Part shown: piece by piece, positions 11,762 to 62,874 of the stretch | Layout: each line of letters opens with the position of its first letter | Numbering within the stretch: the first letter of the stretch is position 1 | Assembly: GCA_036172245.1 (NCBI GenBank) | Contig: JAYWIR010000091.1 | Span: 1 to 64,000 of the forward strand | Direction of reading: 5' to 3' | DNA length: 64,000 nt | Source of the DNA: Raillietiella orientalis | Taxonomy: Eukaryota | Made by a program: the position numbers and the translations under genes | Notes under the pieces: generated by a model | Told to the model about the DNA's origin: nothing | What the model saw: only the letters and a program-made list of their open reading frames with translations | Databases searched by the model: none

Positions 11762-13210
11762 CTGGATAGATGAGGACGGCACCGCCGGGGCCGGTTGTAT
11801 TGGCGATGCGGCGACTGCAACACCTGCGGTGTTGTGTTCTTTTTGAAGCCAGCCGTCGACGCCTCCGTGAGGAACGTACGCTTTGATGACAACGGTCGTG
11901 TTGGACAGATGATTCTATGCTGGTCCGATACGATAGATATGATCGTTACAAACGTCTATGCTCCGGGCGCTAGCAAAGGGTACGCCAAAAGAACTGAGTT
12001 CTTTCAATAGCTATCGAGTTGTGCTCCGCCTTACGGGCGCGCAACTTGATGGAGGGACACCCGGAAATGCAGGACAGCATCGACCACGTTTTCCTCGACC
12101 ACGACCTGTGTACTCGAGTTGGTAAACGAGGAAGACTCTTGTCGACGCTGTCCGACCACTTCCGTCTGATGTTCGATGTCTGTCCACGCGATGAGGGACC
12201 CCTATCCCGGGTGTGGCGTCTACAGGGGGATTTGCGAGGCTCTAAGGTGCGGCGGATCATCTCCGCCAATTCCTGAAAGGCGTCAGCCTCCGGAATCTCG
12301 AGGATTGGGACATCTTCAAGCGTTAGGTCGGCAAGTTCTGTGAGGTGTTTCCCCTGGGGCGCCTTCCCTCCTGGTTCAGGGAAGGAACTCGCAACGGAAG
12401 GGCGTATTTATACGTTCGTCGTTATGCAAGGATACCCAACGTTCGTCGCCTGGCCGAGTACCAAGCCGAGGCTGAGCGCCAAGCTTGGCAGTCCGGGCCG
12501 CCTTCTCTGCTGGACGACCAGGACCGTTAACACTCGGCCCCGCCAGCAATTTGACAGATGCTGAGGGAATTTTATTACTCACTGTACGTTAGGGAGCGTC
12601 GCGAGCGGGACGTATCCCGACTGTTGCTCCCGGACGGAGCCCCGGCCTTAGGAAATAAAGAGATGGAAAGCCTGGACGAGCCTTTTACGACCGATGGAAT
12701 CTTCACCGCGATTAGAGGGCTCAAGAGGCGGAAGGCACCAGGGTAGGACGGCCTGCCCGCAGAGTTTTTTCAAAGCTTCGCGGCAGAGTTGACCCCTCTG
12801 GTGCAGAGATTGACACAGCTAATCCGGGAAGAAGGCGATGTTCCTGCCTCGTTCCGGTAAGCAAGGATGAGGCTCCTCCCCAAGGAAGGAGACCTCCGTA
12901 ATCTAACCAACTGGCGTATGATCACCGTTGTGAACACGGACGTCAAGTTGGTCGCGAAACTGTGAGCTGCGCGGCTCGGACAGGTAGCGGAATCCGTAAT
13001 TAGCCCGAAGAAGACTTACGCTCTTCCCGGGCGAAGTATGTGGGCCAACCTCTTCTTCGCGAGCACATGGTTCCATGTGCAGAGTTGTTAAGAAATAAAA
13101 GACGAAACGATTGGCAGCCCCGATTTGGGGGCGTCAGCCGGGAAGGGACAGGACTCCCACGGGGGGAAGGGTGCCCTAGCAATCGCAGTTGACCTTCATA
13201 AAGCGTTCGA
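11762..13210 (+). mobile_element. Delta-like host, left half: EN fragments, linker, RT up to HKAFD
   Basis: NVYAP, SIDH, SDH, LLPKEGD; ends GACCTTCATAAAGCGTTCGA at 13210; homologous to 44580-45410 (-). Confidence 0.88.
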
Positions 13211-13900
13211 TTTTCACCCAGATTTCGCCGGGGCGTTTATTGTAAAATAAACTTTTACAAAGACGTGCGGTGGCTGGACCATTGCTCCAGCCACGCACGA
13301 AGAAACACAGAACCTGCCGGATCTCCGGATCGCAGACCGGTATGGTCCACCACGGCAGCAGGGGTAAGGGGGAAAAACAAAAAACGAAACAAAAAAGAAA
13401 AAAAAAGTTGGGAGGGTAAGGGAAGGGATCACAGTTGCTGGTGGGGCCGTTGCATCCTTTGCAGGATGCCGGCAAGCTCCTTCTGTATTCCTGGATCTAG
13501 GTGGGGCCATCGGGACGCCCTCCTCAGGAACTGGGAGGCTGGCTGGATGGCACCCTGGTCGCGTTGTCCTCCCGTAGCCTTGCTCCAAGCGGTGACGATC
13601 CCACGTAGGCAGCAAAAAGCGCTAACAAAGCCGCTGGCCGAAGGGCGTCGGCAACGAAGAGGGCTTCCAGTGCGTCCCTGGGGTTGCCGCAGGGGATTCC
13701 GATGGCCGCGGCAAAGCGAAAACAAAGGGGCCGAAGGGCAACACAATCCACTAGCAGGTGAGGGAGAGAATCCCGTTCCCCACACCTGGCGCAATTGGGG
13801 TCCACCGCTCCCCAGGTCCAGTGGTGACGGCGGGCGTTGCAGGAAAGTCCCCAGTGCTGCAACAGGAGAGCCGACTCCTGCCATTTTAAGGGAAAAGCGG
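13211..13900 (-). mobile_element. Alpha copy 1, 3' end
   Basis: WQESALLLQHWG...CARCGERDSLPHLLVDC; ends AATAAACGCCCCGGCGAAATCTGGGTGAAAA; closely similar to 56840-57529. Confidence 0.9.
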
Positions 13901-13904
13901 AAGT

Positions 13905-14677
13905 GAATTGGCAGACGCTGCCACACCTCGCATTCCTGCAAATGGGGTTTCTCCGGTGGAGTGAGCTCTTCGGGGTGCCCACCGATGAACTTGTGGTCCC
14001 TTCTGCGTGTTTGGACGCGACTCTCTTCCCCCTTTGGTGGAAGCAGGACGCTTTTCTGCTGGTGCATTGGGGTTTGTACTGCAACCAGCGGGCGCACCTG
14101 ATTTCCGGGGGAGTTGCGTCCCCGAACTGTGCCAAATGCAAAGCGGTGGAATCGCTTTCGCATTTGCTGTTTGAGTGCGGTGCCCTCCAGGAGCTGTGGC
14201 AGCGGCTGTCTTCAGCGCTCCTGCACCCTGGACACACCGCACTGGATTGGATGCGCCGCTTCTACACGCGTGGCGGACTTTCTCTTGGAGCGGTCGTCGC
14301 AATCATCTGCTGCGTCCGCGCCATTGTGAGGGCCCGCCACGTATTGCAGATGCGAGCAGTCCCAACATCGGTCCCCGACACCGCAGCCTGCAACCTGCAA
14401 ATGGCTGCCGGCTGGCCACATCTTGGAGCAGAATTGAGGATGGAGATCGGCGGCATTCACCGCCGGTTCTGAGAATAGGAACGGTTACACGGTATACCCC
14501 TGTCCCCGCCCCCCCTCCCAGTTTATTTATTTATTGTCCCACCCCCTCCCGTTTCGAACTCTCAGTGTGTCCGGACTGCGTTCCGGGGAATCTACTCCCC
14601 ATTTTCTGTTCCCCTTGCCTGGGAACACAGTTCTCAGTTGATTATTTAATAAACGTCCCGGCGCAACCGGGTAGTAA
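13905..14677 (+). mobile_element. Gamma-like 3' fragment replacing the interior of alpha copy 1
   Basis: HWGLYCN...CAKCKAVESLSHLLFEC, stop 14472; AATAAA 14648-14653 and CCCGG-CGCAA-CCGGG. Confidence 0.87.
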
Positions 14678-15873
14678 ACGACAACGCTGCATTCTTTAAT
14701 TTGCTCGCTTGCCTGCTGTTTTTTCTGGCGGTAAGCGAGCTTTTTCTCCATCCTCCTCTCCTTCTTTGATTTTTTGGCCGTAGCCACCTTCCACCCAGGC
14801 TCCTGGCTTGTTCCCTCGACTTCTTCGGCATTGTTCGCCGGGGTCTCGGGTGCGGCCTGGACCTTGGCCGCGGGTGGCACAGCCTTCGCGGCAGCTTTGG
14901 CCGCCAGCCTTTTCTGCAGAAGCCGGGCGCTTTTTTAAGGTTTCTCTTGGAAACCACCCGCACTGCTGCTTTTGGGCACACCTCCCTCGTGTGGCCCATT
15001 GTGCCGCATACTTGGCACTGCACATTGGGACACCTCTTTTTGAGGTGGCCCGACGTATTGCAGAAGCCACAGTATTTCGGCTTCCCCACATACCAGAGGT
15101 CGACGGTTTCGCCTTCGACCACCAGTTTGTGGGGAAGAGTGCAGCCCTCCCGAACGGTCACGCGCGCAGCAGTGAGGCCGTGTTGCAGCATCGTGTAGTC
15201 CTCGAAAGGACTTACTTTCGTCCACTGCGCGTGGACCGTTCCGAACTGTTCCAAAGAGGCGCGAACCTGTTCTTTGCGCATTCGCGCGGTGACGCCTAAC
15301 AGGTGGACCACCATGCTGCGGTCCGCCGTAGTGGGGAGGAGCCTGCGCATCCCCATCACAACGGGGGTTTTAAGCAGTCGTTGGGCCAGCTCTGCATGTT
15401 TGGAGATGACCTCAAAGTACTGACCCCCGCTGCGGATGGTCATAGCGCTGAGCTCCTCTTCTTTCACATCGAGAGCGCGCATGCCCTTCGAGAAGGCGCG
15501 CGCGCTTTTTAAAGAATATGAATTGCCTACCTTGTAGAACAATGAGGGGTTGTACCCCTCCTCTACATAGGCCGACAATTCCGCCGCGGCTGCAGGCGAT
15601 GGCGCCGACACAACGGCGCTCCATGCCCGCGGTGCAGCGGGGACCGATTCTGTGGGGGCGGATGCCCCCACCTCCATCGCCTCTGGGGGCGACGTTGCCG
15701 CCGCCGCCTGGCTCTCCATCGCCTCTGGGGGCGGCGTTGCCGCTGCCCCCTGGCCATCCCTGGTGGTCGCGCTAGGCATCGCTGCCTGATCGACCACCGA
15801 ACCACACGACGCTTGCACTGGGGGAGACTTCCTGGCACGAGGAGCACCGAGAAAACACGTCCGCCCTAGAGCG
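14678..15873 (-). mobile_element. Alpha copy 1, 5' end and ORF1 N-part
   Basis: Starts CGCTCTAGGGCGGACGTGTTTT; RAWSAVVSAPSPAAAAELSAYVEEGYNP identical to ORF 51986-53119; two CCHC knuckles. Confidence 0.92.
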
Positions 15874-17969
15874 CACAAGGCGTTCGACTGCGTGAACCAG
15901 GAGCTCTTCCTAAGGCTTCTGCATCGCATGGGCTTCCCTCCTACCTTAACGACGTTTCTGCGCTCCTGCTGGCGCGCCGCGATAACAAATATCTGTTTCA
16001 GAGGACAGAACGTGTACGACGTGCCGGTGCGCGGTGGGATTCGGCAGGGCGATAGCTTCAGTCCCCTGCTCTTTAGCATCTACTTCGAGTTATGCTGAGA
16101 GCATGCAGGATGACTTTGGCTGCCTTGCGAAGCTCGTGCCCCGGCACGCCTGCCGTGTCCGCATATGCCGACAATCTACTGCTCCTGCTCCCAATGTCCG
16201 TCCCGGCAACGGCAGTCGAACATTTCTTCGACCTGCTAAGCCGTGGGACAGGGCTACGGGTCAACAGGGCAAAATCGTTGATATAGGCATTTGGAGCGAC
16301 ATGGGTAAGACCGTTTAACTGGATCCGCCTGGGGATGCCGACGGGCACAGATCTGAAGTACCTTGGTGTTTCGCTAAGGGACTTCTGCCCGTCAGAAGCA
16401 TGGTCTTCGGAAAGTGGACTTGGCGATCCGCCCGTTTCTTGATAGCAAGTTCCACTTGCCGGATCTAGCTGCGGTATGGAACGCTTTTGCTGTCCATCCT
16501 CCGCCTAATACTCTTTGTTTGCCCCGTTCCCATGAATATGAAAAAAAGGACAGAAGACCTCCTGCGCATCGCCCTTTGGGGCAAGAGAGGCGTTGAGACC
16601 CTTTGATGGACTTGTGCGCTCCGCGTCGTGATGGTGGTCTTGGCATCCTGACGCTGGAGCGCATGAAAATTTAGCTGCGATGGCGAGTGTTCGCCATCGC
16701 AGCAAAGTTGTGGAGCTCCCCGTGGTGTGTTCCTGCTTGCCTCCTTGCCAGACATGCATCCGGAACGGGGGGACTCGCATCTCTTCTTTTATGTCGTGGA
16801 AGGAAGGCAAGAAGATGCAGCCTTCTCCTCGGACGTGCAGCCACTCTGGCGAGGGAGAATGCGTTTATGATATGCAGCCCCGTCAACTCCAGCTTATGGC
16901 TCCAGAAACAGTTTGCACGTGGGAGGTAGTGAATCAGAGGAGCCACGAGAGGTGGAATAGCCTGCGGCGGGGCAGATACTCCCGCTGCACTCTACGCGAA
17001 ATCGTGGAGTGTCCAGCCAGAAGAGCGTGGGCAGAGACGACCTGTCTGGCTACGGTGCTACCCTTCTCACGTAGGGCCCTCGTCAGCAGCCGGACGCCGA
17101 GGTGGCAAGTCTCTTGCCGTATGGAAGGCAGCGAACAATTGTTGAGCGGTTGGACAATTGGACAGCTGGCGGACGCCACAATCCAGAGCGTCCTTCCCAG
17201 AGGACTTCAAGAATGGGGCGAGCTGTTCGGCATCACGACTGATGACCTGAAGTGGCCCTCAGTGATAACTGGAACAAGCATCCTTCCCCTAGAATGGCAG
17301 GAGTCGGCGCTGATGCTGTTGCACTGTGGACTCCCCTGCAATGCCCGCCGCAACCATTAGACACGGGGAATTGTGAAACTATACTCTGCCGGATGTGGGG
17401 AGCGGAAAACCCTCCCACACCTTTTAGTTGATTGTGCTGCCCTTCGGCCCCTGTGAGAACGCTTTAAGTCCTTAGGTATCCTGGGAGGTAGCCTTCCCAG
17501 AGATGTTTTTCGGCTCGTCTTCTTGCGGGACGCCCTGCAGCCAGTTGCTGTAACAGCAGCTCTCTGCTGCGCACGTGGTATTGTGGCAGCTTGGAGTGGA
17601 TCCGACGAAGCAGAGGATTTCGGCGGAAGGGATGCCATTAAGTTTGCAGCTCGCTTTCTGAGAATAACATCCCGATGGCCCCAACTGGGAAATCACTACC
17701 AGGACCTCGTCGGCATGCTGCAAAGGATGGAAGCTCCATGCCACGGGCTGTGATCCCATCCCGGTCCTTCAATTGAGCAGTGTTTGTACTGTTTGTTTTC
17801 TTTTTATTGTTTCTTTTTTTTTACCCCCAGCCCCATCCGTTGACGTGGAATGTCAAGTCGGTCTAGCACCGACCACCCGACATCTCCAGAGAACTATTGG
17901 CCGCATCGGGGCCTTGTACCGCAAAGACTGTTAGTTTTTTAATAAACACCTCGGCTTTCCGGCTGAAAA
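15874..17969 (+). mobile_element. Delta host, right half: RT from HKAFD to 3' end
   Basis: Starts CACAAGGCGTTCGACTGC; homologous to 42481-44590 (-); AATAAA 17941-17946, ends GGCTGAAAA. Confidence 0.91.
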
Positions 17970-18985: not shown

Positions 18986-19126
18986 AGCCTTGCACACGGG
19001 CATTATCGCCGCCACTGAAGGAAAGGGAGGCGCGATTATTGCTAGTTGCAGTTATACCCATTACCCCGCCAAGGCAGTGTAAAACGACTGCCAAGGCAAT
19101 TTTTATTTGAGTGCCTTAGGAGGGTA
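18986..19126 (+). ncRNA. U4: U4 spliceosomal snRNA-like sequence, full length (probably a retro-copied head rather than a locus with its own promoter)
   Basis: Collinear with canonical U4: 5' AGCCTTGCAC, GGCATTATCG, GAGGCGCGATTATTGCTAGTTG, CCCATTACCCCGCC, GGCAGT/ACTGCC stem, Sm-like site AATTTTTA 19098-19105, terminal TGCCTT/AGGGTA stem; ~141 nt. Confidence 0.88.
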
Positions 19127-24487: not shown

Positions 24488-24489
24488 TT

Positions 24490-30450: not shown

Positions 30451-30454
30451 GACG

Positions 30455-42480: not shown

Positions 42481-45414
42481 TTTTCACCCAGAATGCCAGG
42501 GCGTTTATTAAAATACTAACAGTCTTTGTAGTACAAGGCCTTGCTGCGGCCAGTAGTTCTCTGGTGATGTCGGGTAGTCGGTGCTTAGACCAACTTGACA
42601 CTTCACGGCAACGGATAGGTTGAAAAAATGAAAAACAAAAATAAAAGGAAAACATACAGTAAAAACACTGGTCAATTAGAGGGCCGGGATGAAATCACTG
42701 CCCGTTCCGTGGAGCTTCCATTCTTTCCAGGATGCCGACGAGGTCCTTGTACTGATTTCCCAGTAAAGGCCTTAGGGATGCTGTTCGCAGAAAGCGAGCT
42801 GCAAACTCAATGGCATCCCTTTCGCTGACATCCTCTGCTTCTTCGGATTCACTTCAAGCTGCCACAATACCGCGAACGCAGAAGAGAGCTGCTATTACAG
42901 CGGCTGGCTGCAGGGCGTACCGCACAAAGAGGAGCCGAGAAACGTCTCTGGGAAGGCCACCTTCCAGGATCCCTAAGCAGGAACCGAAACGTTCCCACAG
43001 GGGCCAGAGAGCAGCAGAGACAACTAAAAGGTGCGTGAGGATTTTACGCTGCCCACACCGGGCTCAGTTTGGTTTCACAGTTTCCCCAGTCCAATGGTGA
43101 CGGCGGGCATTGGTTGGGAGTCATCAGTGCAACAGCATCAGCGCCGACTCCTGCCGTTTTAGGGAAAGGATGCTTGTTCCTGTTATCGCTGGGGGCCACT
43201 TCAGGTCATTAGTCGTGATGCCGAGCAGCTCGCCCCTTCCTTGAAGTCCTTTGGGAAGGACGCTCAGGGTTATGGTGTCCGCCAGATGAACCATTGTCCA
43301 ACCGCTCAATAATTGTTCGCTGCCTTCCATAAGGTAAGAGACTTGCCACCTCGGCTTCCGGCTGCTGACAAGGGCCCTACGTAGGAAGGGCAGCACCGTA
43401 GCCAGGCAGGTCGTGTCTGCCTACGTTCTTCTGGCTGGACACTCCAGGATCTCGCTTAAAGTGCAGCGGGAGTATTTGCTTCGCCGTAGGCTATTCCACC
43501 TCTCGTGGCACTTCTGATTCACTATCGTCCGCGTGCCAACTGTTTCTGGAGCCATAAGCTGGAGTTGACGGGGCAGCATATCATCAACGCATTCTCCCTC
43601 GCCAGAGTGGCTGCACGTCTGTGGAGAAGGCCGCATCTTCTTGTCTTCCTTACACGACATAAAAGAAGAGATGCGAGTACTCCCGTTCCGGATGCACGTC
43701 TGGCAAGGAGGCGGGCAGGAACACACCACGGGGTGCTCCACAACTTTGCTGCGATAGCGAACACTCGTTATCGCAGCTAAATTTTTATGCGCTCCAGCGT
43801 CAGGATGCCAAGACCATTATCACGACGGGGAGCGCACAAGTCCATCAAAGGGTCTCGGCGCCTCCCCTCGCCACAAAGGGAGATGCGCAGGAGTTTCTTT
43901 GTCCTTTTTTTCATATTCATGGGGACGGGGAAAACAAAAAGTATTGGGCGAAGGATGGGGGCCGTAAAATCGCTCCATACTGCGGCCCGTTCCGGCAAGT
44001 GGAACTGCCCCTACAGGAACGGGCGGATCGCCAAGTCCACTTGCTGAAGACGACCTGACCATGTTTCTGACGGGCAGAAGTCCCCTAGCGGAACGCCAGG
44101 GTACTGCAGATGTGTGCCCGTCGGGATCCCCAGGCGGATCCAGTTAAACGGTCCTACCCACGTTGCTCCAACTGCCATTATCAACGATTTTGCCCTGTTG
44201 ACCCGTAGCCCTGTCCCACGGCTTAGCAGGTCGAAGAAATGTTCGACTGTCGTTGCCGAGGAGGACAATGAAAGCAGGAGCCCTAGATCGTCGGCATTTG
44301 CGGACACGGCAGGCGTGCCGGAACTTGAGGCTGGCAAGGCAGCCAAAGTAATCCTGCGTGCTCTCAGCACCAATACGAAGCGAGTGCTAAAGAGCAGGGG
44401 AGTGAGGCTTTTGCCCTGCCGAATCCCGCAGCGCACCGGCACGCCGTACACGTTCTGTCCTCTGAAACAGAGGTTTGTTATCGCGGCGCGCCAGCAAGAG
44501 CGCAGGAGCGCCGTTAAAGTAGGAGAAAAGCCCATTCGATGCAGAAGCTCTAGGAGGAGCTTCTCGTCCACGCAGTCGAACGATTTATGAAGGTCAACTG
44601 CGATCGCTAGAGCACCCTTGCCCTTCCGGCTGTCTCCATTCTGACCAGCGGTCACCCTTAAATAGGGGTTTTCGAGAGTTTCCTTGCGTTCTTTCATTTC
44701 TTCTTGTACATGGAACCATCTGCTGGCGAAGAACAGGTTAGCTTTTATACTTCGCCCGGGAACAGCGTAAGTCTGCTCCGGGCTAATTACGGATTCAACT
44801 ACCTGTCCGAGCCGCGCAGCTTACAGTTTCGCGACCAACTTGACGTCCGTGTTCACAACTGTGATCGGACGCCAGTTGGTTAGAATACGGAGGTCTCCTC
44901 CTTTAGGGAGAAGCCTCATCCTAGCTGACCGGAACGAGGCAGGAACATCGCCTTCTTCCCGGATCAGCTGTATCAATCTGTGCACCAAAGGAATCAACTC
45001 TGCCGCGAAGCTTTAAAAAAACTCCGCGGGCAGGCCTCCCTCCCTTGGGGCCTTCCGCCTCTTGAGCCCTTTAATCGCGGTTAGGATTTCACCGGTTGTA
45101 AAAGCTTCGTCGAGGCTTTTCATCTCTTCCTCCCCTAAGGCCGGGGATCCCTCCGGGAGCAACAGTCGCGATACGTCCCTCTCAGGAGGCTCCCTGGCGT
45201 ACAGTGAGGAATAAAATTTTCTCAGCATATGTCGAATTGCTGACGGGGCCGAGTGTTCACGGTCCTGGTCGTCCAGCAGGGTAAGCGGCCCGGACTGCCA
45301 AGCTTGCTGCTCAGTCCCAGCTCGATACTCGGCCAGGCGACGGACGTTGAGGGTCCTTGCATAACGACGGGCGTATAAATACGCATTTAGGTTGCGAGTT
45401 CCTTCCCCAAACCC
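42481..45414 (-). mobile_element. Delta copy 2: ORF2 from GFG linker motif to 3' end
   Basis: Begins GFGEGTRN; VDLHKSFD, GIRQG, NADD; ends AATAAACGCCCTGGCATTCTGGGTGAAAA. Confidence 0.92.
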
Positions 45415-45420
45415 TCTTCA

Positions 45421-47902
45421 TCGTGAGCGAACGTGTTTTTCCGTCGCTCCGCCTGCGTGGCAAGGCGAGCGTTTTTACTTGAGCATTTTGTGCTTTCACA
45501 TCGTTGGTGTCCGATGGTTACGATGCCAGAGGGCATTGCGATGAAAGTAGGCGTAAGGGAGGCTTGTTCGTCCCCACAGCCCACTGAATCAGGGGCATCC
45601 GCCCAGGATTCGTCCCAAGCGCTACAGACAAGGACTTGGAGTACCATGCTGGCAGCGCCCAGCGCCGAAGCCTTGGCAGAGCAGAAGGCCTATCGGGCAG
45701 CAGGGTAAAAACCCCCGCTGGTATACAAGGAAGGTCCATTGTTTGATGGGCGGACTGCATGCGCCTTTACGAAGGCGCGGCGAAACGCGAACATCAGAGA
45801 GCAAGATCTGCACGGCCTCTCCGTCCTCAGCGGGGGTCAGCGGGTCGAGATGGTACGCAAAGATATCACCTTGGCCGAACGCCTGATCGTCGATCCGCTG
45901 ATCGTTGATGGTGAGAAGATCTTGCCGGTGACGATGGATCGCTCCGTAGTGGTCCATCTCACCGGGACCACCAGCCGAGTGACGCAGTCAGCGGTTGGTG
46001 ATCAGTTATGCAGGCACGCTGAAGTGCACGCGTTGTGGCCGACGCCTACGATTTTTAAAAGCTAGAATAGCCTTTTCGGGGGCCAAGCCGCGGCGTGAGT
46101 CACGGTAAAAGAGGGCGGTGCGCTTACCTACAAGCTGGAGGTCTGCCAAGAAGCGATAGACGTCTGGTAAGTAAGGAAATCCCAATTTTGTGGCTACTGC
46201 AATGCAGTAGGGCATCTTAGGAAAAGGTGCCCGAACATTGTGTGCCACTTATGCGGGGTGTAAAGGCACGTTCGACGCGTGTGCCCCAAGCGCCTTACCT
46301 TGGTGCCCACTGCTGCCAAAAAAGCACAGGGAAAACGTGCGAAACTGGTCGAAAGACCAACGCAGGGAAACAGCCGTTCCCAGCCGCCAGCCCCAGCTCC
46401 TCATGCAAAGGCGGGGGGAGAAAATACTCCCGAAGACGCGAGAGTGAAGAAGGGTTAGCAGTTGGTTAAGGCCAAGAGAGAAAACAAGAAAATTCTGGCA
46501 GAAGAAAAGTCGGAGAAGAAAACTGCCGGCAAAAAGAAAAAAGCTGCGCCGCTTTCTAAAGAACTCCGGGAATGCTCGGTGGCATTGGTACGCTTAGCCG
46601 TTCCTGCCGAGGCCGCCTACGGCATTGCTCAACAGATAGCTGCTGAGGTCGCAACCGGTAATCGCGTGGACGAACCCATTCTACGTTTAGAGGGTGAGAC
46701 GCGAAACTCGCGGGCCGACAGCGAGGACGCCGCGCTCAGTAAGGTCGCAGAGGAGCCCGCGGCAACGTTCGCCGTCAGCAAGGACGCCGCGCTCGGTAAG
46801 GTCGCGGAGGAGGGCGCGGCAACGTTTGCCGCCAGCGAGGACGCCGCGCTCGATCAGGTCGCGGAAAAGCCCGCGGCAAGGCTCACCGATTGCGAGGACG
46901 TCGCCTTCGAAAAAGCGGTGGAGGAGCTCGCAGCAACGCTTGGCGAGCGCGAAACCCCGTTGCACAAGGGCGTCCGCAGGCCGGCACCGAAGAAAGTGCC
47001 TCCCAAAAGTGAGTCCGACCGGGAGGCCGGATATTCATCCTCCTCCGCGGAGGTACCTCCTCGAAAGGCAGGACGCTAGTCCCAGAAGCCCAAAAGGTGC
47101 CTTCCCGTTTCAAGCGAGGAGCAAACAGAGGAAGATCACGGCAGCGTGGCGGCCCCGGAGGGGGATCCTCCATGCGCGGACGCTGGCGCACAGGCGACGC
47201 CTATGGAGGAGGGTGAGCAGCGTAACGAAGCCAACCCTGCATGCGCCGAACCCAAGAAACCCGCCCCTATTGAGGAGGGCGATCAGGTAGGCGCGATCAC
47301 ACCTTCGGGAGACACGCCTGAGGCGCCGACACCAATGGAGAAGGAGGATCAGGTTCTCGACGCACGACCCGTTTCCCTCCTAGCCTCCCGCCCCAAGAGT
47401 TGGCGGACACCGCAATGCCACTTTCCCAGGATTCACACCTGGGCTCGCCTGTCGCCGTCGGAACCGCGCGGTCAGTTGGAATGTCAACGGGCTGCGCGAC
47501 GACGGCAGCAAACGAGATACAGCCGACACGCTGCGTGAGCTCGAACTGGCTCTGCAGCAGGAGATCAACGTGATCTTCGCGGTGGACGTCCACGAGATCG
47601 AATCGATCGCGTGGGGTCTGTTATACTAGCAAAGCGGCGCCCGCAACATCCGTATGGTCACGCTTTTTGTGAAGTCAGCCGTCGACGCTGCCTTGAAGGG
47701 CGTGCGTTTTGATGACGACGGTCAGGTCAACCAGCTGATTCTCAAATGGTCCGACTCAATCGACTTAAACGTCAGACACGTGTATGCCCCCAGCGGTAAG
47801 CAGAGGTACCGCGACCGTACTAGGTTGCTGCAGACGCTGAAGCGCGACTGGCTGGCGGACACGAACGTGCGAATGGCTCACCTGATGACGGGAGATTTCA
47901 AT
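45421..47902 (+). mobile_element. Beta, left part: 5' UTR, ORF1, EN up to GDFN
   Basis: GAGCGAACGTGTTTT 45425-45439; decayed ORF1 knuckles; WNVNG 47477; ends GGAGATTTCAAT 47891-47902. Confidence 0.88.
46720..46940 (+). repeat. 57-bp (19 aa) tandem repeat x4 in ORF1
   Basis: AGCRAGGACGCCGCG at 46720, 46777, 46834; SEDAALxKVAEEPAATF units. Confidence 0.88.
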
Positions 47903-49764
47903 CGAGTGCGGACGTGTTTTCCTTCGCTCTCGCCTCCGTGCTTTCATCCGCTTCATCTTGGCGTCGTACATTTTGACGACGATGTCGACCCAACTTGGAG
48001 CTACTGAAGGAGGAACAGCATCCGGATCTGCAATCGCGGAACCTACGGCCGCCTCCACTTCGTCTTTCTCGCCAATGGAGAGGAGTTTTGCTGACGTTGC
48101 TGCCACAGCAGCCGTCAAAGGGAAACCACTCGACGAGTCGGAGTTGCGGGCATACGTAGCCCAAGGCTATAGACCTGCTCTCCGATATGAGGTGAGTGGT
48201 TTTCTTTCTGCGCGCGACGGGAATCAGTTCAATGATGAACTAACCCGTTTTGGCGTGCGGGAGGAGGACCTTCTCGTTATTATGCCCGTAAAAGACATGG
48301 GCAATTTCAAGGTGCGTTGCAAAGACGCTGCACTTGTGCAACGCTTGCTGCGCAACCCGTTGTCGATCCGTGGCCACAAGGTCTTCCCAGCCGCCATGGA
48401 CGACTCATTTGTGGCGGAGATTTTCGACATCGAGTCAAAAATCTCCGATATTGATATTCGGAACGCGTTGGAGAAATTCGCGACGGTCCATGCGCAGTGG
48501 AGGGTGCGTAGCAACCTCAAGGACTTCCCGTCCATACACAGCGGAGTCGCTGGAGTCCGGCTTACAATGCCAGACCGCCGTCTGCTGCCTACCAAACTAC
48601 AGGTAAAAGACACGGTCGTTCACCTGTTGTTCGTGGGCAAAGTAAGAACGTGCGAGCAATGCGGGAAGGAGGGGCATTGTTTGGATAAATGCCCCTCTGG
48701 AAAATGCCGTTATTGCAAACTATCCGGGCACCAATTGAAAAATTGCCCGGATCGTTTGCGAAAAAAGGCAGCCGCGGAGCTTCATCTTAAGAAACAAAGC
48801 GCGGATAATAAAAAAAAATCTGCGAAAAACCTGGAGACCCCACGGCAGAAATTCGGTAAAAACGCGAGGCGGAATGTCGCTCCAAAGCAGCAGGAAACCT
48901 CGCACGCGAAGCCCTGCGCACCCCCTCTCGCAGCAGGGGAGCCGCAAAAGAAAGGGTGCGGGGAATCCGGGGCAATGGTAAGTCCCCCTGGGCGCAATAG
49001 CTGTCCTTCCCAAGCACGCCCGGATCTTTCGGATTTCGAGCAACCGGCGGGGACGTCAATGGACAACGGCGGTAAGGACACCTCCAGTACCGTCAGATCC
49101 ATTCCTTCACCTCCTGCACTGGCTGAGAAGCCCAAATCGGGTAAGAAGGGTTGTGCCGTGTTAACTTCGAAAGTCGGCAAAAAAAAATCCGCGTCGCGAT
49201 CCAACATTGCGGAAGCGGAGAAAACTCTCACGCCGTCGCAGTCGGAGAGCAAGCTCTCGACTGGCGGGGATGCCATGCCAACGAAGGGATTGAAAGCCCT
49301 TCCGAAGGCAGCGTCCATGACGAGCGTGTCGAAGCCATCCAAAGTGCTCCCGTCCAAAGACGCGGATGGCTTCAAAGATGGCAATGGAGCACAATCTTTA
49401 TTTATGGCGCCACGCGAAGTGAGGAACCGTAATGAAGTAAAGAAGACTTCAGCAAAGGTCCCTCGTGCAACTGCGCGTGAGCACGCTGAAAACGCGCGCG
49501 CCGGGAAAGCAGCCGTCACCAAAAGCGATGCTCTGGAGACTGAAAAAGACAACAGGACAGCTGTCAATCCAGCAGAACCTGTCACTACTTCGCGGGAGGC
49601 CGAAACCCGATCTAACATGCGCCGGTCGGACTCCGAAATGGATGCCGTCCCGATCACCGAGACGAGGACAACTCGTTCAATAGCGTGTGCTCCCCGATCA
49701 AAAGTAGGCAGCCAGGCAACGCCCGCCGCTAAGCAGCGCGAAGTCTCCACGAAACCCAACGGGG
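47903..49764 (+). mobile_element. Gamma, 5' end and almost complete ORF1
   Basis: CGAGTGCGGACGTGTTTT start; open 611-codon frame with ERSFADVAA, CEQCGKEGHCLDKC, CRYCKLSGHQLKNC. Confidence 0.92.
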
Positions 49765-51915
49765 TTTTTCACACGGGTAAGCCTGGGCTTTGATTACTAA
49801 AATTTTAACATTACAAAATTTTGTAATCAAGTCTATGTTCTTAAAATTTTTCGCTTTACGACGTCAGAAGTTCAGTGCAGAAGTTCAGTAGCACTTGTCC
49901 TTACCGACCCGGAGGCCGATAAGGTCCTTCACTGGCGCCGAGACGGGAAAAATAAAAGAAAACAAAAACAAAAAAAGAAAAACGTCTTGAGGGCAAAGTT
50001 TTTTGGGGAGGGGGAGGGAGGGGGGGATTATGGTGCGCCGTGAGCCGGCCTTTGCATCCGGTTTCGGATGCGAACAAGTGCTGGCAAATGATTTTGAAGT
50101 CGGCGCCAACGGCACGCTTTCTCCAAGGAGATCGCAGCCCAGTGGATGGCATTCCGGCTGGTCCTACCTCTCCTAGACGCGGTTCACTTCTCCAGGATAC
50201 CGCGTATGCAGCAGAGCACTGCTACGCTCCCGGGGGCTGGCAAGTTGTCTCGCGTCAGAAGGCGTGTGAATAAATTTTTCGTGTCACCCTCCGGAATGTT
50301 GAGGATCGACGAGAGTCTGTCCACATTTCGTGGAGGGCAACACACTCCAGAACCAAGTGGGAGAAGGTCTCCCTTTCCCCGCATTCTGCACAACTAGCAT
50401 CCACATTCCCCGATTTCCAGCGTGACAGGCGTGCTCTGCTTAAAAGTCCCCAGTGGAGCAGACGCAACGCCGTCTCCTGCCACTGCAGGGGAAGGGTGCC
50501 GTTGTCGCATGACGCTGGGGGCCACTTCACCTCCTCCGGAGGTATACCGAGCAGCGCGCCTTAGCGTAAAAGTCCGTTCTGCGGGACACTCGGAGTACTA
50601 GCGTTCGCTAGTTCCCACGGCGTCCACGCCTTCAGTGATTTTTTCCTGCCTCCGATGAGGCAGGACACTTCCCATGAGGCCTGTTGGTGGCTGTGTCGAA
50701 CTTCCCTGAGGGAGGCAGCACTGGGGCAAGGGGGGTGAAGGAAGCCCACAGAAGTTTCCGTGGGTTGGAAGCGATCTCCTGGAGTGGCTGACCAGCGTGC
50801 ATTCCTCTGCGGAGGCAGGAGAAGTCCTCATCGCTGGTGCCATTGATCTTCGCCCATGCGGATACGGACGCCTGAAGCCAGGTTGTCCAGTCCGCTGGGA
50901 TGCAGGAGATCCAAGGGTTGTCTCTCATCAGAGCAACCAAATCCCGCAGCTGATAACCACAATGGTTCAGGCTGCGTTTGTTGGCTACCAGGATTGAAGT
51001 CAATCCGAAGCACCTGGTTGCCCTGTGAGCAAGGAGTCTTGCTGGTGCACACCAGGGTGCTGTCCAAAACTTTGCCACAAGGGCAAGTTTTCTGAATTGG
51101 AGCTGCCGCTCCATGCGCTCCAACGTCAGGAGACCAAGTCCACCGTCCCTGCGTGGAGCGCACAAGTCTTTGAGCCGGACGCGAGGCCTCCGGTAGCCCC
51201 TGAGGGCTTTGTGTATAAGGACCCTAGTCCGTGTCCTAATTTGATACAAGGTAGGGCACACAAAAAGTAGGGGGCGAAGGAGGGGTTCCGCGAGAGCGTT
51301 CCATACCGTGGCCCGTTCCTGCAAGCGAAACTTGCCGTTCCGGAACGGGCCGATCGCCACGTCCACCTTTTGTAGACGGTCGGACCAGGCTTCTGCAGAG
51401 AAGAAGTGCCACAACGTAACGCGAAGGAACTTGATGTGCCTGCCCTTGGGGATCCCCAAGCGGATCCAGTCCGACCGTCCGGCCCTCTTCGAGTCGGTGA
51501 AAAGCAACGACGACTTCGTCCTGTTCACCTGGAGGCCTGTCCCACGGTATAGCAACTCGAAGAAATCCTCGAGCGCCGATGCCGGGGAGGACCTGGGAAG
51601 CAGGAGCAGAAGATCGTCGGCATAGGTCGACACGGAAGGCGTGCCGGGACACAAGCTCGGCAAGGTTGCCAAAGTCTCCCTGTATGCTCTCAGCACCAAC
51701 TCAAAGTAGATGCAGAAGAGCAGGGGGCTGAGGCTGTCACCTTGCCGGATGCCACGACGAACCGGCACGCGGAACACGTGCCGGCCGCTGAAATTAATAT
51801 TTATGAACGCGTAGCTCTGGCAGGAGCGCAGGTAGGCCAGGAAGACGGCCGGAAATGCCAAGGGTTCCAGGAGCTCCAGAAGGAGCTCCTGGTCGACGCA
51901 GTCGAAAACTTTACG
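49765..51915 (-). mobile_element. Epsilon copy 2: RT from KAFD-site to 3' end
   Basis: Begins RKVFDCVDQELL; 409 aa ORF with QGDSLSP, YADD; ends AATCAAAGCCCAGGCTTACCCGTGTGAAAAA. Confidence 0.9.
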
Positions 51916-51919
51916 TCGG

Positions 51920-51937
51920 CTAGAGCGGACGTGTTTC
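51920..51937 (+). promoter_or_regulatory. Conserved 5'-terminal motif (candidate internal promoter or initiator), representative copy
   Basis: GAGCGGACGTGTTT variants at element starts near 4983-5000(-), 9190(-), 15852(-), 25833(-), 26191, 27393(-), 45425, 47904. Confidence 0.6.
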
Positions 51938-53728
51938 CTCGGTGCTCCTCGTGCCGGGAAGCGTCCCTAGGTGTAGGCTTCGAGTGTGGTGGTGGTCGAT
52001 CAGGCAGCAATGCCTGACACGACCACCAGTGCGTGTCAGGGGGCGGTGGCAACGTCGCCTCCTGAAGAAATGTTGTGCCAGGTGGCGGCGGCAACGTCGC
52101 CTATAGAGAATGTGGAGTGCCAGGAGGCGGCGGCAACGTCGCCTTCAGTGGCGAAGGAGGAGGAAGCGTTCGCCCTCACAAAACCGGTCCCCGTTGCAGC
52201 GCGTGCTTGGAGCGCCGTCGTGTCGGCGCCATCGCCTGCAGCCGCGGCGGAATTATCTGCCTATGTGGAAGAGGGGTATAACCCATCACTATTCTACAAG
52301 GTAGGCAATTTGTATTCTGCTGAGATTGCTTGCGCCTTTTCGAAGGGGATGCGCGCTCTCGATGTTAAAGAGAAGGAGCTCTGCGCTATGACCGTTCCTA
52401 GCGGAGGGCAGTACGTAGAGGTGATCTGCAAACATGCAGATCTGGCACAACGTCTGCTTGAAACCCCCGTAATAATGAAGACACTAAGGTTCCTTCCCGT
52501 TACGGCGGACCACAGTATGGTGTTCCACCTTCTAGGAGTTACCGCGCGGATGCAGAAAGAACAGTTACGCGCCGCGTTGGGAAAAGAAGGCACGGTCCAT
52601 GCAGTATGGACCAAGACTAGTCCTTTCGAGGACTATACCACAGTTCAGTGCGGCCTCACGGCTGCCCGTGTAACCGTTTGGGAGAACTGTACCCTTCCCC
52701 ACAAACTGGTGGTCGGCGGAGAAAGCGTCGACCTCTGGTACGTGAGGAAGCCGAAATACTGTGGCTTCTGCAACACATCGCGACACCTCAAAAGGAGGTG
52801 CCCCAACGTACAGTGCCTGGTATGCGGGACAATGGGTCACACGAAGGAAGTGTGTCCACAATCCGCTGTGCGCGTGGTTACCGCGAGGAACCTAAGAAAA
52901 CGCGCGCGGCTGCTACGGAAACAACTGGCGGCGAAGGCTGCCGCTCAAGATGTGCCACCCACTCTCGTGGTCCAGGTCTCAGCCGACACCCCGGCAACGA
53001 ATGCCGAAAAGATCGACAAAAGCGGTCAGGAGTCGAAATGGCAAGAGGTCACAGCGAAAAAGAAAAAAAAGTCGAAGAATGAACGACGAATTGAAAAAAA
53101 AGTTCGCCTACCAAAATAAAAAACAGCAGGTTAGCGAGAATTTAAAAGAATGCAGCGTCGTAGTGGAACTTGTCCCCGCCGAACGCCGCAAGGTAGAAAT
53201 CGCTGCTACCTACGAGCAACCCACTGTTGAAAATGTCAACAGCGTGGGGAGCGAACCCACGGAAGCGTCCGTCATCGAGGCCGTGATCGATGACGCCGCC
53301 TTCTAGCGTGCGGCGGAGGATCTGGCTGCATAGTTGCAGCCAGACCCCTCGAAGGCTGGCAAAAAGGCAGTGAGGCGTCCGGCCTCAACCGAGGAGTCGG
53401 TAACTTCCGACCCCGAAGCGAAGACCGGAAACCAAGTTTCTATTTTGGCGGCACCCCGCTGGAAGGCTCGAAGGAAGGACAGGAAACCGGGGAAAGCCCC
53501 TCTCCAGGTCGAAGGCGTGGAGATGACTTCCCACTGCGAGGGTGCCATTAGCGTGGGAGAATCCCGGGAATCGTCACCCGAGAGACCACCACGCACAGAC
53601 ACGGAGGAGATGGAGGGGGCTGAAGCCGGAAAGGTACTCAAGGCGCCTGAGGAGACTGGAACCCTAATGGTCAAATCACCCGCCTCCGAAGAGGCAGGTT
53701 CCCCCACACCGTCGTCTTCCCGGCAGTA

Positions 53729-55333
53729 ATGCCGGCAATCTCCTCCCACCGTCGTCTGCGCATCGCCGTTTGGAACGTGAACGGCATGACAGACGCCGGA
53801 AGGAGGCGAGACATGGCCGCCATCCTAGGATCGTTCGACCTTGCGCTGCTACTGGAGATCCATGTGATCTCTTCAGAACCAGCGCAGGAGATCAAACGCA
53901 TCTCAGGAGGGCAGCTGTTGTATGGGTGTGGAAGATCGAGAAGTTGTGGTGTCGCCTACCTGCTTCGGCCCGCCATCGAGGCGGCTGCCCGTGGACTTCA
54001 GTTCGACGATCACGGTCGTGTCGGCCAGCTGACTCTCAGCTGGACCGACTTGATCGACCTGATCGTTACAAACGTTTACGTCCCGAGCGGAGCGGACCTG
54101 ACGAACAGGAGGGCCAGGAAAGAATTTTTCCTTGCCCTCCATTGCAACTGGTTGACCGAGGCAGGCGTGCGGAATGCCCATGTGGTTGCAGGCGATTTTA
54201 ACGTTCGTATGAACCCGGATGGGCCTAATCACGAGCGTGACCTGGTCAACGAGGTGTGCGCGGCGGTGCACACTTGTAATTTGTTAGCCAGTGTACCAGG
54301 GATGGACGACAACATCGATCACGTGTTCCTTGACGAGCACCTGTGCACTCGTGTGGGCGGGCGCTGCAAGTTGCCGTGCGAGTTGTCCGACCATCGACCA
54401 ATCGTGATTGAAATCCATCCGCGCAACAGGGGCCCCCCCTCGTCAGCGTGGCGTTTGCCAGAAGACTGGCTGAAGCTCCCGGACGCGACGGAACATCTCC
54501 GCACGTTCATACGGAGCTTTAAGATGCAGGCACTTCAGGATTGGGACTGCTTTAAACGGTCGGTCCAGGAGTTCTGCGACCAGTTCCCTCTGCACCCCCT
54601 AGCTGTGGGATTTGGGGACGAAGTACGTAACAAACGAGCCTATCTGCAGGCTCGCCGTTACGCCAGGACCCTTGACATCCGCAGGCTAACAGGATACAAA
54701 GCGGGAGCCAAGAGGCAAGCCTGGCAGTCAGGATCGGCCTGCTTGCTGGACGATCAGGGCCAGGAGCATACGGCACCCGTTCAGATCCGCGGTCTGCTGC
54801 GGAGTTTTTACTCCTCCCTGTACGCAAGAACTCCTCCCGAGCGGGATTTCTTACGAATCCTGCTTCCGGAAGGCGCTTCTGCGATCGGGGAAGAAAAGAA
54901 AAAGTCCCTCGACGAGTGTTTCACGATGGGGGAGATCATCTCGGCCATCGGAAGGCTCAAGAGGCGAAAGGCTCCAGAAGAGGACGGCCTGTCCGCGGAG
55001 TTTTATCAAACTTCCGCGGATGAGCTAACCCCCCTGGTACATCAACTCACCTTACTGATACGCAAGACAGGTGACTTTCCCGCCTCGTTTCGTTCGGCAA
55101 AGATGCGGCTTCTCTCTTTGGGAGGAGATCTGAGGAGCATGAACAACTGGCGTTTCATCACAATAGTGAATGCGGATGCCAAGTTGATAGCTAAGGTTTG
55201 GGCTGAGCGCTTGAAACGGGTTGCAAACGCCTACATCAGCCCGGAACAGACGTATGCTGTTCCGGGGCGAAGCATGAAGGCGAACCTGTTCCACGCTTCC
55301 ACCTGGCTAGAGCTCCAACACGAAAGGGCTTGA
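53729..55333 (+). pseudogene. ORF2 N-terminal half: APE endonuclease, linker, RT start
   Basis: 534 aa: VWNVNG, LLE, NVYVP, GDFN, IDH, SDH, then NADAKL, SPEQTYAVPGRS; frameshift at ~55328. Confidence 0.9.
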
Positions 55334-57529
55334 TGCGCACCGGGAATTCCGGTGAGTCCGTCAGTCATGCGACGGATGGTCGGATGGGAGAGGGAGCACT
55401 TGCGTTCGCTGTCGACTTGGGTAAAGCATTCGACAGCGTCGACCAGAATCTCCTGCTGGAGCTTTTGGAACGCTTAGGCTTCTCGGCCTCATTATTGGCC
55501 TATCTGCGCTCTAGCTGGCGCGATGCACAAATCAATGTTACTTTCAGCGGGCATACTATTCACGGTGTGCCGGTGCTACGTGGGATCCGGCAAGAAGACA
55601 GCCTGAGCCCCTTGCTGTTCAGTACCTACTTTGAGTTGGTACTGAAAGCGTACAGGTAAACTCTGGCGCACCTGCCGCATGAATGCGCCGGAACGCCTGC
55701 AATTTCAGCATATGCAGACGACCTCCTGCTACTGCTCCCTATTTCCACTCCAACTTCGGCGGTTTAGAAGTTCTTCGACCTGCTGAATCAAGGAACCGGA
55801 CTTACGGTGAACTGGGCGAAGTCGTCCGTGATGCCAGTTGGTGCGGCGTGGGCAGGGAAGCAAGACTGTCTCCGTTTGGGGATGCCCACGGTGACGTACT
55901 TCAAGTACCTTGGTGTGCGTTGGGGGACTACTCCCCTGCGGAAGCGTTGTCCGGTTGCCTTCAAAAAGTAGAGACGGCTATCGGCCCGTTCCGAGGCGGC
56001 TCGTTTTTCCTGCCTGAACGGGCCGCGGTTTGGAAGATGTTCGCTGCTCCTCTCCTCCGTTGTCTGCTTTTTGTTTGCCCCCCAACAGAGAGGATCAAAA
56101 AGCGGACGAAGGACCTTCTCCGTATCGCGCCTTCGGGCAACGGGAGGGCCCGTGTCCGCTTGAAGGACTTGTGCGCTCCGCGTCGGAACGGTGGTCTCGG
56201 CCTCCTGACATTGGAGCGGCTGGAGCTGTAGCTCCAGTTCCGGATTTTAACACTTGTGCCGGAGTTGTGGTGCACCTGTTGGTGCGTCCCTGCACGTCTC
56301 CACCTTCAGCAAGCCACCGGCAATACGGGACTTACGTTGTTTCTGGCACTCCATCGAAGCCGCATCAACCGAATTGGGCTTGATCTACGGAGGTTGGCTG
56401 CGCTGGCAAGCAAAAATCAAGGATGGATCACCTGTCTCCACGCAAACGGTAGTGCCTGGTTGCAGGAAACCGTTCGCACGTGGGGACAGTTGGGCATGCA
56501 ACCCTCCCATCAGGAACGAAGGATCCTGTTTGGGTGTTACAGAAGTTGCACGCTCAGAGAGATCCTGAAGGATCCTAAGAAGAGAGCGTGGTCAGCAAGA
56601 ACCCCCCTCGCTGCTGCGCTGGACTCCCTAGTGGAACATCAGGACAGCGATGTTGCGGCGAAGTGGGAGGTTACAATAAAAATCTCCGGGAATGAGAAGA
56701 AGCAGAGAGAGTGGAAGATGGGCCAGCTAACTGATGCTGCGACCCCGAGTACGCCTTCTAATGGACTTCTATGCTGGAGAGCTCTGCTGGATGTTCCGAT
56801 TGAACATCTGAAGTGGCCCCCGATTCTTATGAACACTTCCTTCCTCCCCTTAAAATAGCAAGAGTCGGCATTCCTGTTGCAGCACTGGGGACTCCCCTGC
56901 AACGCCCGTCGACACCACTGGACCTTTGGAGCGTTGGATCCCAATTGTGTGAGGTGCGGGGAACGGGTTTTCCTCCCCCACCTCCTAGTGGATTGTGTTG
57001 CCCTTCGACCCCTTTGGTTCGGCTTTGCCGCGGCCATCGGTGTCCCTTGCAGCAACCCCAGGGACGCACTAAAAGCCTTTTTCGTTGTCGACACCCTCCG
57101 GCCAGCATCCTCGATAGAAGCCTTGTTCTGCCTTCGTGGCTTCGTCGCCGCCTGGAGCACGGTGACGGGAGGACCTAGCGATCAGGAAGCCATTTAGTGC
57201 GCCTCCGAATTCCTGAGGAGGGCGTCGCGATCATTCCACCTGGATGTTCACAACAAACAAGAGGTTGCCAGCATCCTGAGAGGGATGATGCGGCCCCAGC
57301 AGCATCAGTGATCCCTTCCCGTTCCCTCCCACCCTTTGTTTTCTTTTCTTTAGTTTTTTTGTTTTTGCCCTTTCCCCTGCTGCCTTGGTTGACAGTACCG
57401 GTCAATAAACCGGTGAATTGGCAGGCGCCGTGGTTCTTAGCTTCTGGCTGGAGGATTGCCACAGCCATAAATAATTTGTTTACAAAGTTTATTTTCTTAA
57501 TAAACGACCCGGAGAAATCTGGGTGAAAA

Positions 57530-57749
57530 TCGAACGCCTTGTGGAGATCGACCGCGACCGCCAAGGCACCTGGCGTACCCTCCTGCCGTCGGAGGCTGTT
57601 CTTCTTGCCTGCGGCAGTGAGTTTCTCAGCAGCCTGGCTTCGCTGCGCCACAACTTCCTGAAGCTGCATCCATGTACGCGCGAATAGGATGTTCGCCTCC
57701 ATGGATCGTCCCGGAACCGCGTTGGTTTGTTCCGGGCTCACCACAGATT
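57530..57749 (-). mobile_element. RT fragment ending at HKAFD (right flank of alpha copy 2)
   Basis: SPEQTNAVPGRSMEAN...ALAVAVDLHKAFD. Confidence 0.9.
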
Positions 57750-62800: not shown

Positions 62801-62874
62801 TACGGCCGTGGTGGGGCCTAGTACCACGCATGTAAAGTTGATTAATAAACGCCCCGGGCGTACCCGGGTGATAA
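59816..62874 (+). mobile_element. Beta, right part: EN from (D)FN to 3' end, with internal deletion near 61290
   Basis: Starts ATTTCAAT; SIDH, GFGEG, DLHKAFD, QGDSLSP, CVRCGERESLSHLIMDC; AATAAA 62844-62849, CCCGGG-CGTA-CCCGGGTGATAA. Confidence 0.9.
62844..62874 (+). terminator. Conserved 3'-terminal AATAAA plus hairpin, representative copy
   Basis: Same layout at about 13 element ends in the window. Confidence 0.7.

Follow-up and report, generated by a model that had tools for sequence, protein, structure and literature searches.

Do related long interspersed nuclear elements (LINEs) insert into one another at fixed nucleotides? The question is raised by a 64,000-nt stretch of Raillietiella orientalis DNA (contig JAYWIR010000091.1 of assembly GCA_036172245.1, positions 1 to 64,000; hereafter the window), in which two copies of one LINE family, designated alpha, are each inserted antisense in a related L1-like LINE, at the codons of motif A of its reverse transcriptase (RT). 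A first-pass annotation of this DNA had proposed that alpha is a sequence-specific LINE aimed at RT motif A of sister LINEs. The proposal was supported by the coincidence of nucleotide and orientation, by the selection signatures of inserts and hosts, by the colinearity of the first host with an alpha-free relative (E10), and by two more families that have sites of their own.

The elements of the window were mapped by tblastn with the reading frames of the second alpha copy (alpha2), which gave about 20 LINE pieces (numbered E1 to E19, apart from the alpha copies and their two hosts). A six-frame Pfam scan of 142 frames of at least 125 aa showed Exo_endo_phos, RVT_1 and zf-RVT matches throughout the window. 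Two termini served as anchors to catalogue junctions: a 3' terminus common to all LINEs of the group (AATAAAcg..CCgG....CyGGGTGAwAA) and the 5' start of six full-length copies (C(G/T)(A/T)G.GCG(G/A)ACG(T/G)G). The LINE parts of the window had a G+C content of 50-60%, and the observed/expected ratio of CpG in the window was 0.97.

Alpha insertions at RT motif A

Alpha2 is a full-length L1-like LINE of 5,610 bp (51920..57529, plus strand; 3' end AATAAACGACCCGGAGAAATCTGGGTGAAAA). Its open reading frame (ORF) 1 is open (51977-53116, 380 aa), and its ORF2 lies in four pieces (53651-55330, 55207-55656, 55683-56228, and 56232-56855) with at least two frameshifts and one stop. The other copy, alpha1 (13211-15869, minus strand), is internally disrupted. 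Its 3' part (13211..13905; alpha positions 4915-5610) was 78% identical to alpha2, and its 5' part, consisting of the 5' untranslated region (UTR) and ORF1 (14678..15869; alpha positions 1-1245), was 75.5% identical; alpha positions 1245-4915 are replaced by E12, a 5'-truncated E4-like LINE (13906..14677, plus strand; 3' end AATAAACGTCCCGGCGCAACCGGGTAGTAA). Around the start of ORF1, not far from the 5' end, a 42-nt unit is repeated in tandem in both copies (15672-15754, 2.0 units; 52033-52144, 2.7 units).

Each alpha copy divides a host LINE into two parts. Host 1, on the plus strand, consists of an upstream part (11795..13210; alpha coordinates about 1996-3503), of the same family as E10, and a downstream part that reaches its own 3' end (15874..17969; GGCTGAAAA at 17969). 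This 3' end is embedded, in antisense orientation, in the endonuclease-coding part of a further LINE, E6, and the host 1 sequence carries frameshifts. Host 2, on the minus strand, consists of about 224 bp upstream of motif A (57530..57753), adjoining the 5'-truncated E15, and of the sequence that follows motif A up to the host's own 3' end (49765..51915; GTGTGAAAAA at 49765), which includes a 444-aa open frame (50635-51966).

The 3' junction of alpha1, read on the plus strand, was CATAAAGCGTTCGA (to 13210) followed by TTTTCACCC (from 13211), and that of alpha2 was GGGTGAAAA (to 57529) followed by TCGAACGCCTTGTG (from 57530). Both 3' ends continue into TCGAACGC, the antisense of GCGTTCGA, which represents the K-A-F-D codons of RT motif A (H-K-A-F-D) in the flanking LINE of the opposite strand. 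The junction sequences of both copies bore out that the host strand is broken right after TTCGA of these codons. The host RT frame runs on across the flanks, reading AVDLHKAFD on one side and KAFDCVNQ on the other. The putative alpha target stretch around the motif A nick is GCGTTCGAC.

At the 5' side of alpha1, the element start (the reverse complement of CTAGGGCGGACGTG) at 15869 is followed by AGCG (15870-15873) and by the host-1 14-mer CACAAGGCGTTCGA (15874-15887), so that the plus-strand unit spans 15870..15887. In alpha2, the 14-mer TCGAAAACTTTACG (51902-51915), the antisense of CGTAAAGTTTTCGA, which reads R-K-V-F-D, is followed by TCGG (51916-51919) and by the element from 51920 (CTAGAGCGGACGTG), the unit spanning 51902..51919 on the plus strand. 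In both copies, 18 nt separate the nick from the element start. Read in the element sense, the 4 extra nucleotides, which are unrelated sequence, are TCGG in alpha2 and CGCT in alpha1; at both loci they are preceded by a 14-mer homologous to the 14-mer on the 3' side. The 3'-side 14-mers are CATAAAGCGTTCGA in host 1 (13197..13210, plus strand) and TCGAACGCCTTGTG at alpha2 (57530..57543, plus strand; the antisense of CACAAGGCGTTCGA). The paired 14-mers differ at 2 of 14 positions in host 1 and at 5 of 14 in host 2.

All four junctions that had been placed at one site were therefore present (13210/13211, 57529/57530, 15869, and 51920). The 5' arrangement of a 14-mer and 4 nt held for both copies; the 14-mers had been described as the same motif, and this part did not stand, as the two 5'-side 14-mers are homologous only (9 of 14 positions identical). 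Both alpha copies of the window (2/2) have a common junction, register and orientation, and no further alpha termini were found within it.

The alpha2 pieces matched RVT_1 and, over positions 2-225 of the 225 in the profile, Exo_endo_phos (1.3e-9) in the Pfam scan; in sister elements, zf-RVT scored slightly under the Pfam cut-off. Residues 364-541 of alpha ORF2 matched residues 392-571 of human L1 ORF2p (E = 2.7e-24), and the nearest public proteins to alpha ORF2 were plant-type L1 ORF2 proteins, with 23-31% identity. A protein search with the alpha endonuclease half gave no match of similar length. The metagenome scan gave 0 matches to the alpha 3'-end pattern, and 41 pattern matches to the alpha C-terminal protein, of which 0 were confirmed. 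The order of N-terminal apurinic-type endonuclease, RT and C-terminal Cys-rich region was that of the L1 superfamily, and the ORF2 similarity extended beyond the generic RT palm. Judged by domain order and protein similarity, alpha and its relatives are assigned to the L1 superfamily, the affinity obtained being that of the superfamily and of no finer clade.

Alpha1 and alpha2 were 76-78% identical. Their ORF1 copies were 78% identical, with 63, 57, and 117 differences at codon positions 1, 2, and 3 (p = 1e-6), and the ratio of nonsynonymous to synonymous substitution rates (dN/dS) was 0.28, against 1.2-1.4 in both wrong frames. Because of this low ratio and the codon-position bias, the two alpha lineages must have diverged mainly while active. 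Hosts 1 and 2 shared 70% nucleotide identity across 900 nt of RT (dN/dS 0.37), which agrees with their earlier assignment to different families, and alpha was 67-70% identical to its two host families. Without alpha1 and one 14-mer, host 1 is colinear with the uninterrupted E10 on both sides. In windows of 100 columns, host 1 and E10 were mostly 84-91% identical on either side of the junction; lower values were 53% directly upstream of the junction and 77-81% in three windows of the 3' part. The about 100 nt upstream of RT motif A (13066-13165 and homologous stretches) are hypervariable, with the 53% identity of host 1 and E10 reached without gaps. These comparisons support the independent insertion of two alpha lineages at one nucleotide, in one orientation, in two host families.

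Junctions of related families at two other sites

The G-F-G site lies between the endonuclease and the RT (host sense ..TTCGGCG^) and was occupied antisense at three loci. E1 (1..2398, plus strand; 3' end GGTGGCAT) joins CGCCGAAACC, the antisense of its host E2. E16, designated beta (59816..62874, plus strand), starts at G-D-F-N codons, and its 3' end GGGTGATAA joins CGCCGAATTC, the antisense of E17. The two 3' ends (2398 and 62874) join CGCCGAA... in antisense at the homologous nucleotide of E2 and E17. E17 (62875..63297, minus strand) is a host piece that reaches from the G-D-F-N site to the G-F-G site and is 80.6% identical to E16 (423 nt); E16 thus lies in a beta-family host, but antisense. 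The RT region of E16 carries a deletion. Identity was 74% between the C-terminal coding parts of E1 and E16 (dN/dS 0.36) and 62% between their hosts E2 and E17 (dN/dS 0.33). At the third locus, E11a (45422..47902, plus strand; full 5' end CGTGAGCGAACGTG) is antisense to its host E10 (42481..45421, minus strand), the family mate of host 1, in which the motif A site is empty. The E11a 5' end (45422) is 17 nt from the G-F-G nick position in E10, a matching geometry. The 3' end of E10 (42481) joins TGGCGAGAGAAGG, a non-LINE sequence.

E1 is a recombinant. It was 82-94% identical to alpha2 through the RT (to about position 1050) and 45-63% identical thereafter, and its 3' half was nearest to E16, by a slight margin over host 1. 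The RT is unlikely to set the target, because E1, with an alpha-type RT, sits at the beta site and not at the alpha site. The composition of E1, whose endonuclease falls beyond the window, hints that site choice may not be encoded in the RT.

The G-D-F-N site lies in the endonuclease (host sense GGnG^ATTTCAA) and was used in sense at four loci. E15, designated gamma (57754..59815, plus strand), is 5'-truncated, and its 3' end GGTGATAA joins ATTTCAATCTC of E16 at the G-D-F-N codons. E18, also gamma (63298..64000, minus strand; 3' end GGGTGATAA), joins ATTTCAATGTC of E17 in the same site and orientation as E15. Both 3' ends (59815 and 63298) join ATTTCAAT... at the identical nucleotide of E16 and E17. 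The E15 and E18 inserts were 94% identical (700 nt) and their hosts E16 and E17 were 80.6% identical, so they represent separate events. The other two loci show full 5' ends. E11b (47903..49764, plus strand; CGAGTGCGGACGTG) is joined in sense to GGAGATTTCAAT of E11a, 8 nt past the G-D-F-N nick. E19 (24492..25852, minus strand; CGAGAGACGGACGTG) is joined in sense to GGCGATTTCAACGTTCGC+TTTCA of E8, 19 nt past the nick, which corresponds to a 14-nt target-like stretch and 5 extra nucleotides. E11b and E19 are each other's sole 5'-region relatives in the window (68% across 604 nt; 1 of 28 pairwise comparisons). The 14+4 pattern of alpha is echoed by 14+5 at E19 and by about 10+7 at E11a.

Exact reuse of one site in one orientation recurs in the three families. 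A terminus was visible in 16 elements, 9 of which lie at one or other of the three sites. Four family pairs offered two visible 3' junctions for comparison, and in 3 of them the site was shared. A chance model distributed 9 LINE-in-LINE 3' junctions randomly over 2 strands of 5,600 positions each; it gave P ~5e-6 for two pairs that coincide exactly, or P ~5e-4 were a tenth of the positions usable. The third pair was found later and stands outside the calculation.

Of the 9 LINE copies of the window that include the motif A position, two are occupied by alpha and 7 are empty. The sequence GCGTTCGA stands at both occupied sites and, among the empty ones, at that of E4 alone (1/7). The alpha-type RTs, alpha2 (A2) and E1, read GCATTCGA at motif A (form of the site in the alpha-type RT gene, GCATTCGACAG), and both of these sites are empty. 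This occupancy pattern may point to a recognition sequence and possibly to self-avoidance, although with p ~0.08 in an exact test it is only a lead.

Proposed mechanism and alternative explanations

The arrangement is probably best explained by sequence-specific target-primed insertion of alpha into the conserved ORF2 DNA of sister LINEs, at RT motif A, with at least two other families behaving alike. In this model, alpha, an L1-like LINE that encodes an apurinic-type endonuclease and an RT and has a zinc-binding region at the C terminus, would use its endonuclease to nick the coding strand of the host after GCGTTCGA, and the freed 3' end would prime complementary DNA synthesis at a fixed point of the alpha RNA (GGGTGAAAA), without a variable poly-A; both alpha copies end exactly in GAAAA, with no poly-A. 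This would place alpha in antisense orientation within the host. A cut in the second strand, at a distance of about 14 nt, would produce the 14-nt repeat, and about 4 untemplated nucleotides would be added at the full-length 5' end. Each insertion would divide the host RT at its catalytic motif. Other families would act likewise at G-F-G (antisense) and G-D-F-N (sense), and a nested LINE island would result. The role of the endonuclease in choosing the site is suggested by analogy with R1, TRAS and SART; the order of strand cleavage and the source of the extra nucleotides are likewise inferred.

A broader reading, which we consider somewhat better than even, is that the window holds a guild of L1-like families in mutual sequence-specific parasitism, each homing to a different conserved codon block of ORF2 (G-D-F-N, G-F-G, or motif A). 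If so, the targets would be hard to mutate away since they are catalytic, and insertion would disable competitors, spare host genes and build LINE islands.

Several results weigh against site-specific insertion of alpha and its relatives. The main weakness is the sample, which consists of one window with two alpha copies. Not every family is site-specific: the 3' ends of host 1 and E10, two elements with 82-87% identity, adjoin flanks that are unrelated to each other. The endonuclease is visible in alpha2 alone. When the 3' UTRs of four elements were compared with their targets, in the same sense or as complements and at 8 nt or more, no recurrent match was found, the single 8-mer being in alpha2; nor was a motif common to the three nick sites found. 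Finally, the host-2 14-mers differ at 5/14 positions though the adjoining frame is open for 444 codons. Because this host frame is open, the mismatch is not a simple duplication followed by decay. The 5'-side copy (CGTAAAGTTTTCGA) looks like a natural motif A variant, the counterpart of which in E1 is CGTAAAGCATTCGA. Later gene conversion is a possible source of the mismatch, as is a homology-assisted 5' join via a flank carried on the RNA, of the kind discussed for R2.

One history that would account for an identical register at all four junctions is a single ancient alpha insertion, after which the composite was multiplied by segmental duplication, or by trans retrotransposition as a non-autonomous unit, and then drifted; a dense repeat nest with evident rearrangements would be a fitting place for it. 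Dead passengers should evolve neutrally and inserts and hosts should diverge equally, so the model of one event propagated in dead DNA, or by mobilisation of the composite in trans, was rejected: dN/dS was 0.28 in alpha ORF1 and 0.37 in the host RT, with wrong-frame controls of at least 1. Host 1, moreover, is 84-91% identical to the alpha-free E10 and 70% to host 2, and identity is 94% between the gamma inserts against 80.6% between their hosts. The first-pass annotation had itself named a single duplicated event as a history that would overturn its proposal; the dN/dS values of inserts and hosts, together with the E10 colinearity, rule it out for the motif A junctions, and in general form it is very improbable. 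Chance, or a loose nick preference within LINE islands that act as insertion sinks, is less credible still. A regional bias does exist, as 10 of 12 visible 3' ends lie in other LINEs, and the pair of host 1 and E10 at unrelated sites fits a sink. Three exact coincident pairs, alike in orientation within each pair, do not, given P ~5e-6 for two pairs among 9 junctions.

A different objection is that the site was reached without a choice by the endonuclease, either through DNA-level spread between LINE copies or through resolution of the 5' side by homology; possible routes are gene conversion, recombination via conserved flanks, and annealing of the flank of a read-through transcript, as proposed for R2 and R1. 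The host-2 14-mers favour it, since the 5'-side copy resembles a natural variant and not decay. The first 44 nt of host 2 past the junction differ from the alpha-type RT at 6 positions and from E4 at 11, which is not significant, and the flanks of several inserts (E15, E12) fit no single host. In the part of PMC4494074 drawn on here, the target-specific integration of R2 is said to be reinforced by transcription together with the target. On the other side, the alpha lineages diverged under purifying selection, so they retrotransposed, and both reached the site. Six full-length 5' ends with one start motif stand beside four kinds of flank, which speaks against a long carried leader; the extra 4-7 nt vary between copies; and the 3' junction is exact to the nucleotide in three families. 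This explanation is considered unlikely, and target-primed insertion directed by sequence remains the preferred reading.

Other candidate explanations were rejected. An assembly artefact does not fit junctions that lack homology for a false join and that recur in diverged copies. Twin priming does not fit an insert and a host of different families, the more so as host 2 has its own 3' end. Transduction of host flanks at the 3' or 5' side does not fit host 1, which is a bona fide member of the E10 family. An origin of the host-2 flanks from two different elements was not supported, both flanks being nearest to E4. A carried 18-nt leader does not fit conserved 5' starts with variable extra nucleotides.

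Neighbouring features and known systems

Two 5'-truncated inserts coincide with target losses of hundreds to thousands of bases. At E12 (13906-14677), about 3.7 kb of alpha1 is gone, and E15 (57753/57754) abuts the 5'-truncated host 2 and not the remainder of E16. On the plus strand, E3, E4 and host 1 lie head to tail (5055-17969). The E3 3' end (7068) joins E4 in sense, directly upstream of the E4 endonuclease, and E4 is without its last approximately 400 nt where the 5'-truncated host 1 starts. The full 5' end of E5 (9208, minus strand) lies within E4 in the opposite orientation; in E4, the G-F-G site follows some 95 nt downstream. E5 has an ORF1 region that is distantly alpha-like (65% across 700 nt). 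Its insertion point may be a fourth target position, represented by a single instance.

A complete U4 small nuclear RNA (snRNA) match was found at 18986-19124 (plus strand; 63.9 bits, model positions 1-138 of 138). Immediately downstream of it come the 5' region and ORF1 of E7, a divergent LINE of lower G+C content (about 19150-24000; RVT_1 2e-29), and a LINE endonuclease fragment adjoins it on the other strand. The position would suit a LINE associated with an snRNA, and a U4 head or pseudogene is another possibility. A stretch free of LINE homology (about 30127-42480), with a lower G+C content (37-50%), separates the 3' end of E9 (30126) from that of E10 (42481). Long frames recur within it in reversed order (for example 33658-34068, minus strand, and 41955-42623, plus strand; 36797-37156 and 39164-39526), which suggests a large inverted repeat.

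Known targets of site-specific LINEs are ribosomal RNA (rRNA), transfer RNA (tRNA) and snRNA genes, microsatellites, telomeres, and some DNA or long terminal repeat (LTR) transposons. R1 and R2 insert into 28S ribosomal DNA, and TRAS and SART into telomeric repeats; the endonuclease of R2 is restriction-like. Alpha resembles these elements in its exact nucleotide within a conserved multicopy sequence and in the precise 3' start of reverse transcription. It differs from them in the target, since theirs are host RNA genes or simple repeats and not retrotransposon genes. The ingi/RIME elements of Trypanosoma brucei occupy one position of the RHS genes. They are likewise LINEs at one relative position in a multigene family, but that family is a host gene family and not the RT gene of sister LINEs.

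The target classes of site-specific LINEs are tabulated, and transposons counted among them, in the portion of a review used here (PMC5035012). In work by Takahashi and Fujiwara (2002), cited in the sections of PMC4494074 used here, target choice in such elements is ascribed chiefly to the endonuclease. In those sections, Kojima (2015) describes the Tx1 group, a clade reported from animals, with families at fixed positions in Mariner, Harbinger and LTR retrotransposons: Tx1L in Tx1D, Tx1-Mar in Mariner-N4_AMi, Tx1-9_AMi in Harbinger, and Tx1-8_Crp and Tx1-4_AMi in LTR retrotransposons (PMC4494074). The criterion given there for a sequence-specific LINE is that more than 20% of flanks lie in the target. 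As far as these sections go, the Tx1 group and alpha share an endonuclease-bearing LINE at a fixed position in a multicopy transposon and tandem or nested copies at the target. The duplications of the Tx1 group are long and constant (16 bp reported for SINEU-3; PMC4494074), beside a 14-nt repeat in the window whose two copies agree at 12 of 14 positions in host 1 and at 9 of 14 in host 2. Compared with the Tx1 group as described there, the target in the window is protein-coding DNA of catalytic motifs in sister LINEs of the same superfamily, and at least three families, with three ORF2 sites, insert into one another. In a literature search of limited coverage, outside which the original Zepp descriptions fell, no described case of LINEs aimed at coding motifs of sister LINEs was found. 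The target class appears to be new, and the principle of LINEs targeting other transposons had already been described.

If the reading is true, the conserved catalytic codons of other LINEs would be a new safe harbour, present in many copies, of no harm to the host and kept under constraint because the victim needs a working enzyme, and the locus would be a clear case of retrotransposon competition or hyperparasitism. Three related elements with three exact targets would also offer a natural system for mapping L1-type specificity, relevant to programmable insertion tools.

The nested island itself is closest in form to those of Zepp and ZeppL in green algae and Cnl1 in Cryptococcus, which insert into their own copies and produce nested arrays (PMC8226300, PMC3446292, and PMC9942834, in the parts used here). 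In these systems as in the window, L1-type LINEs amass in islands by insertion into LINE copies, and G+C content is higher within the islands than around them. The Zepp and Cnl1 arrays are described in those parts as tandem arrays of mostly 5'-truncated 3' ends, with no fixed nucleotide or coding motif named, whereas in the window alpha and beta are antisense, several copies are full-length, the sites are exact and the 3' ends lack poly-A. Alpha was found antisense in two other families, and not in tandem within its own. Site-specific insertion into sister LINEs, if true, would thus add a sequence-level route to nested LINE islands such as those at some algal centromeres and fungal subtelomeres.

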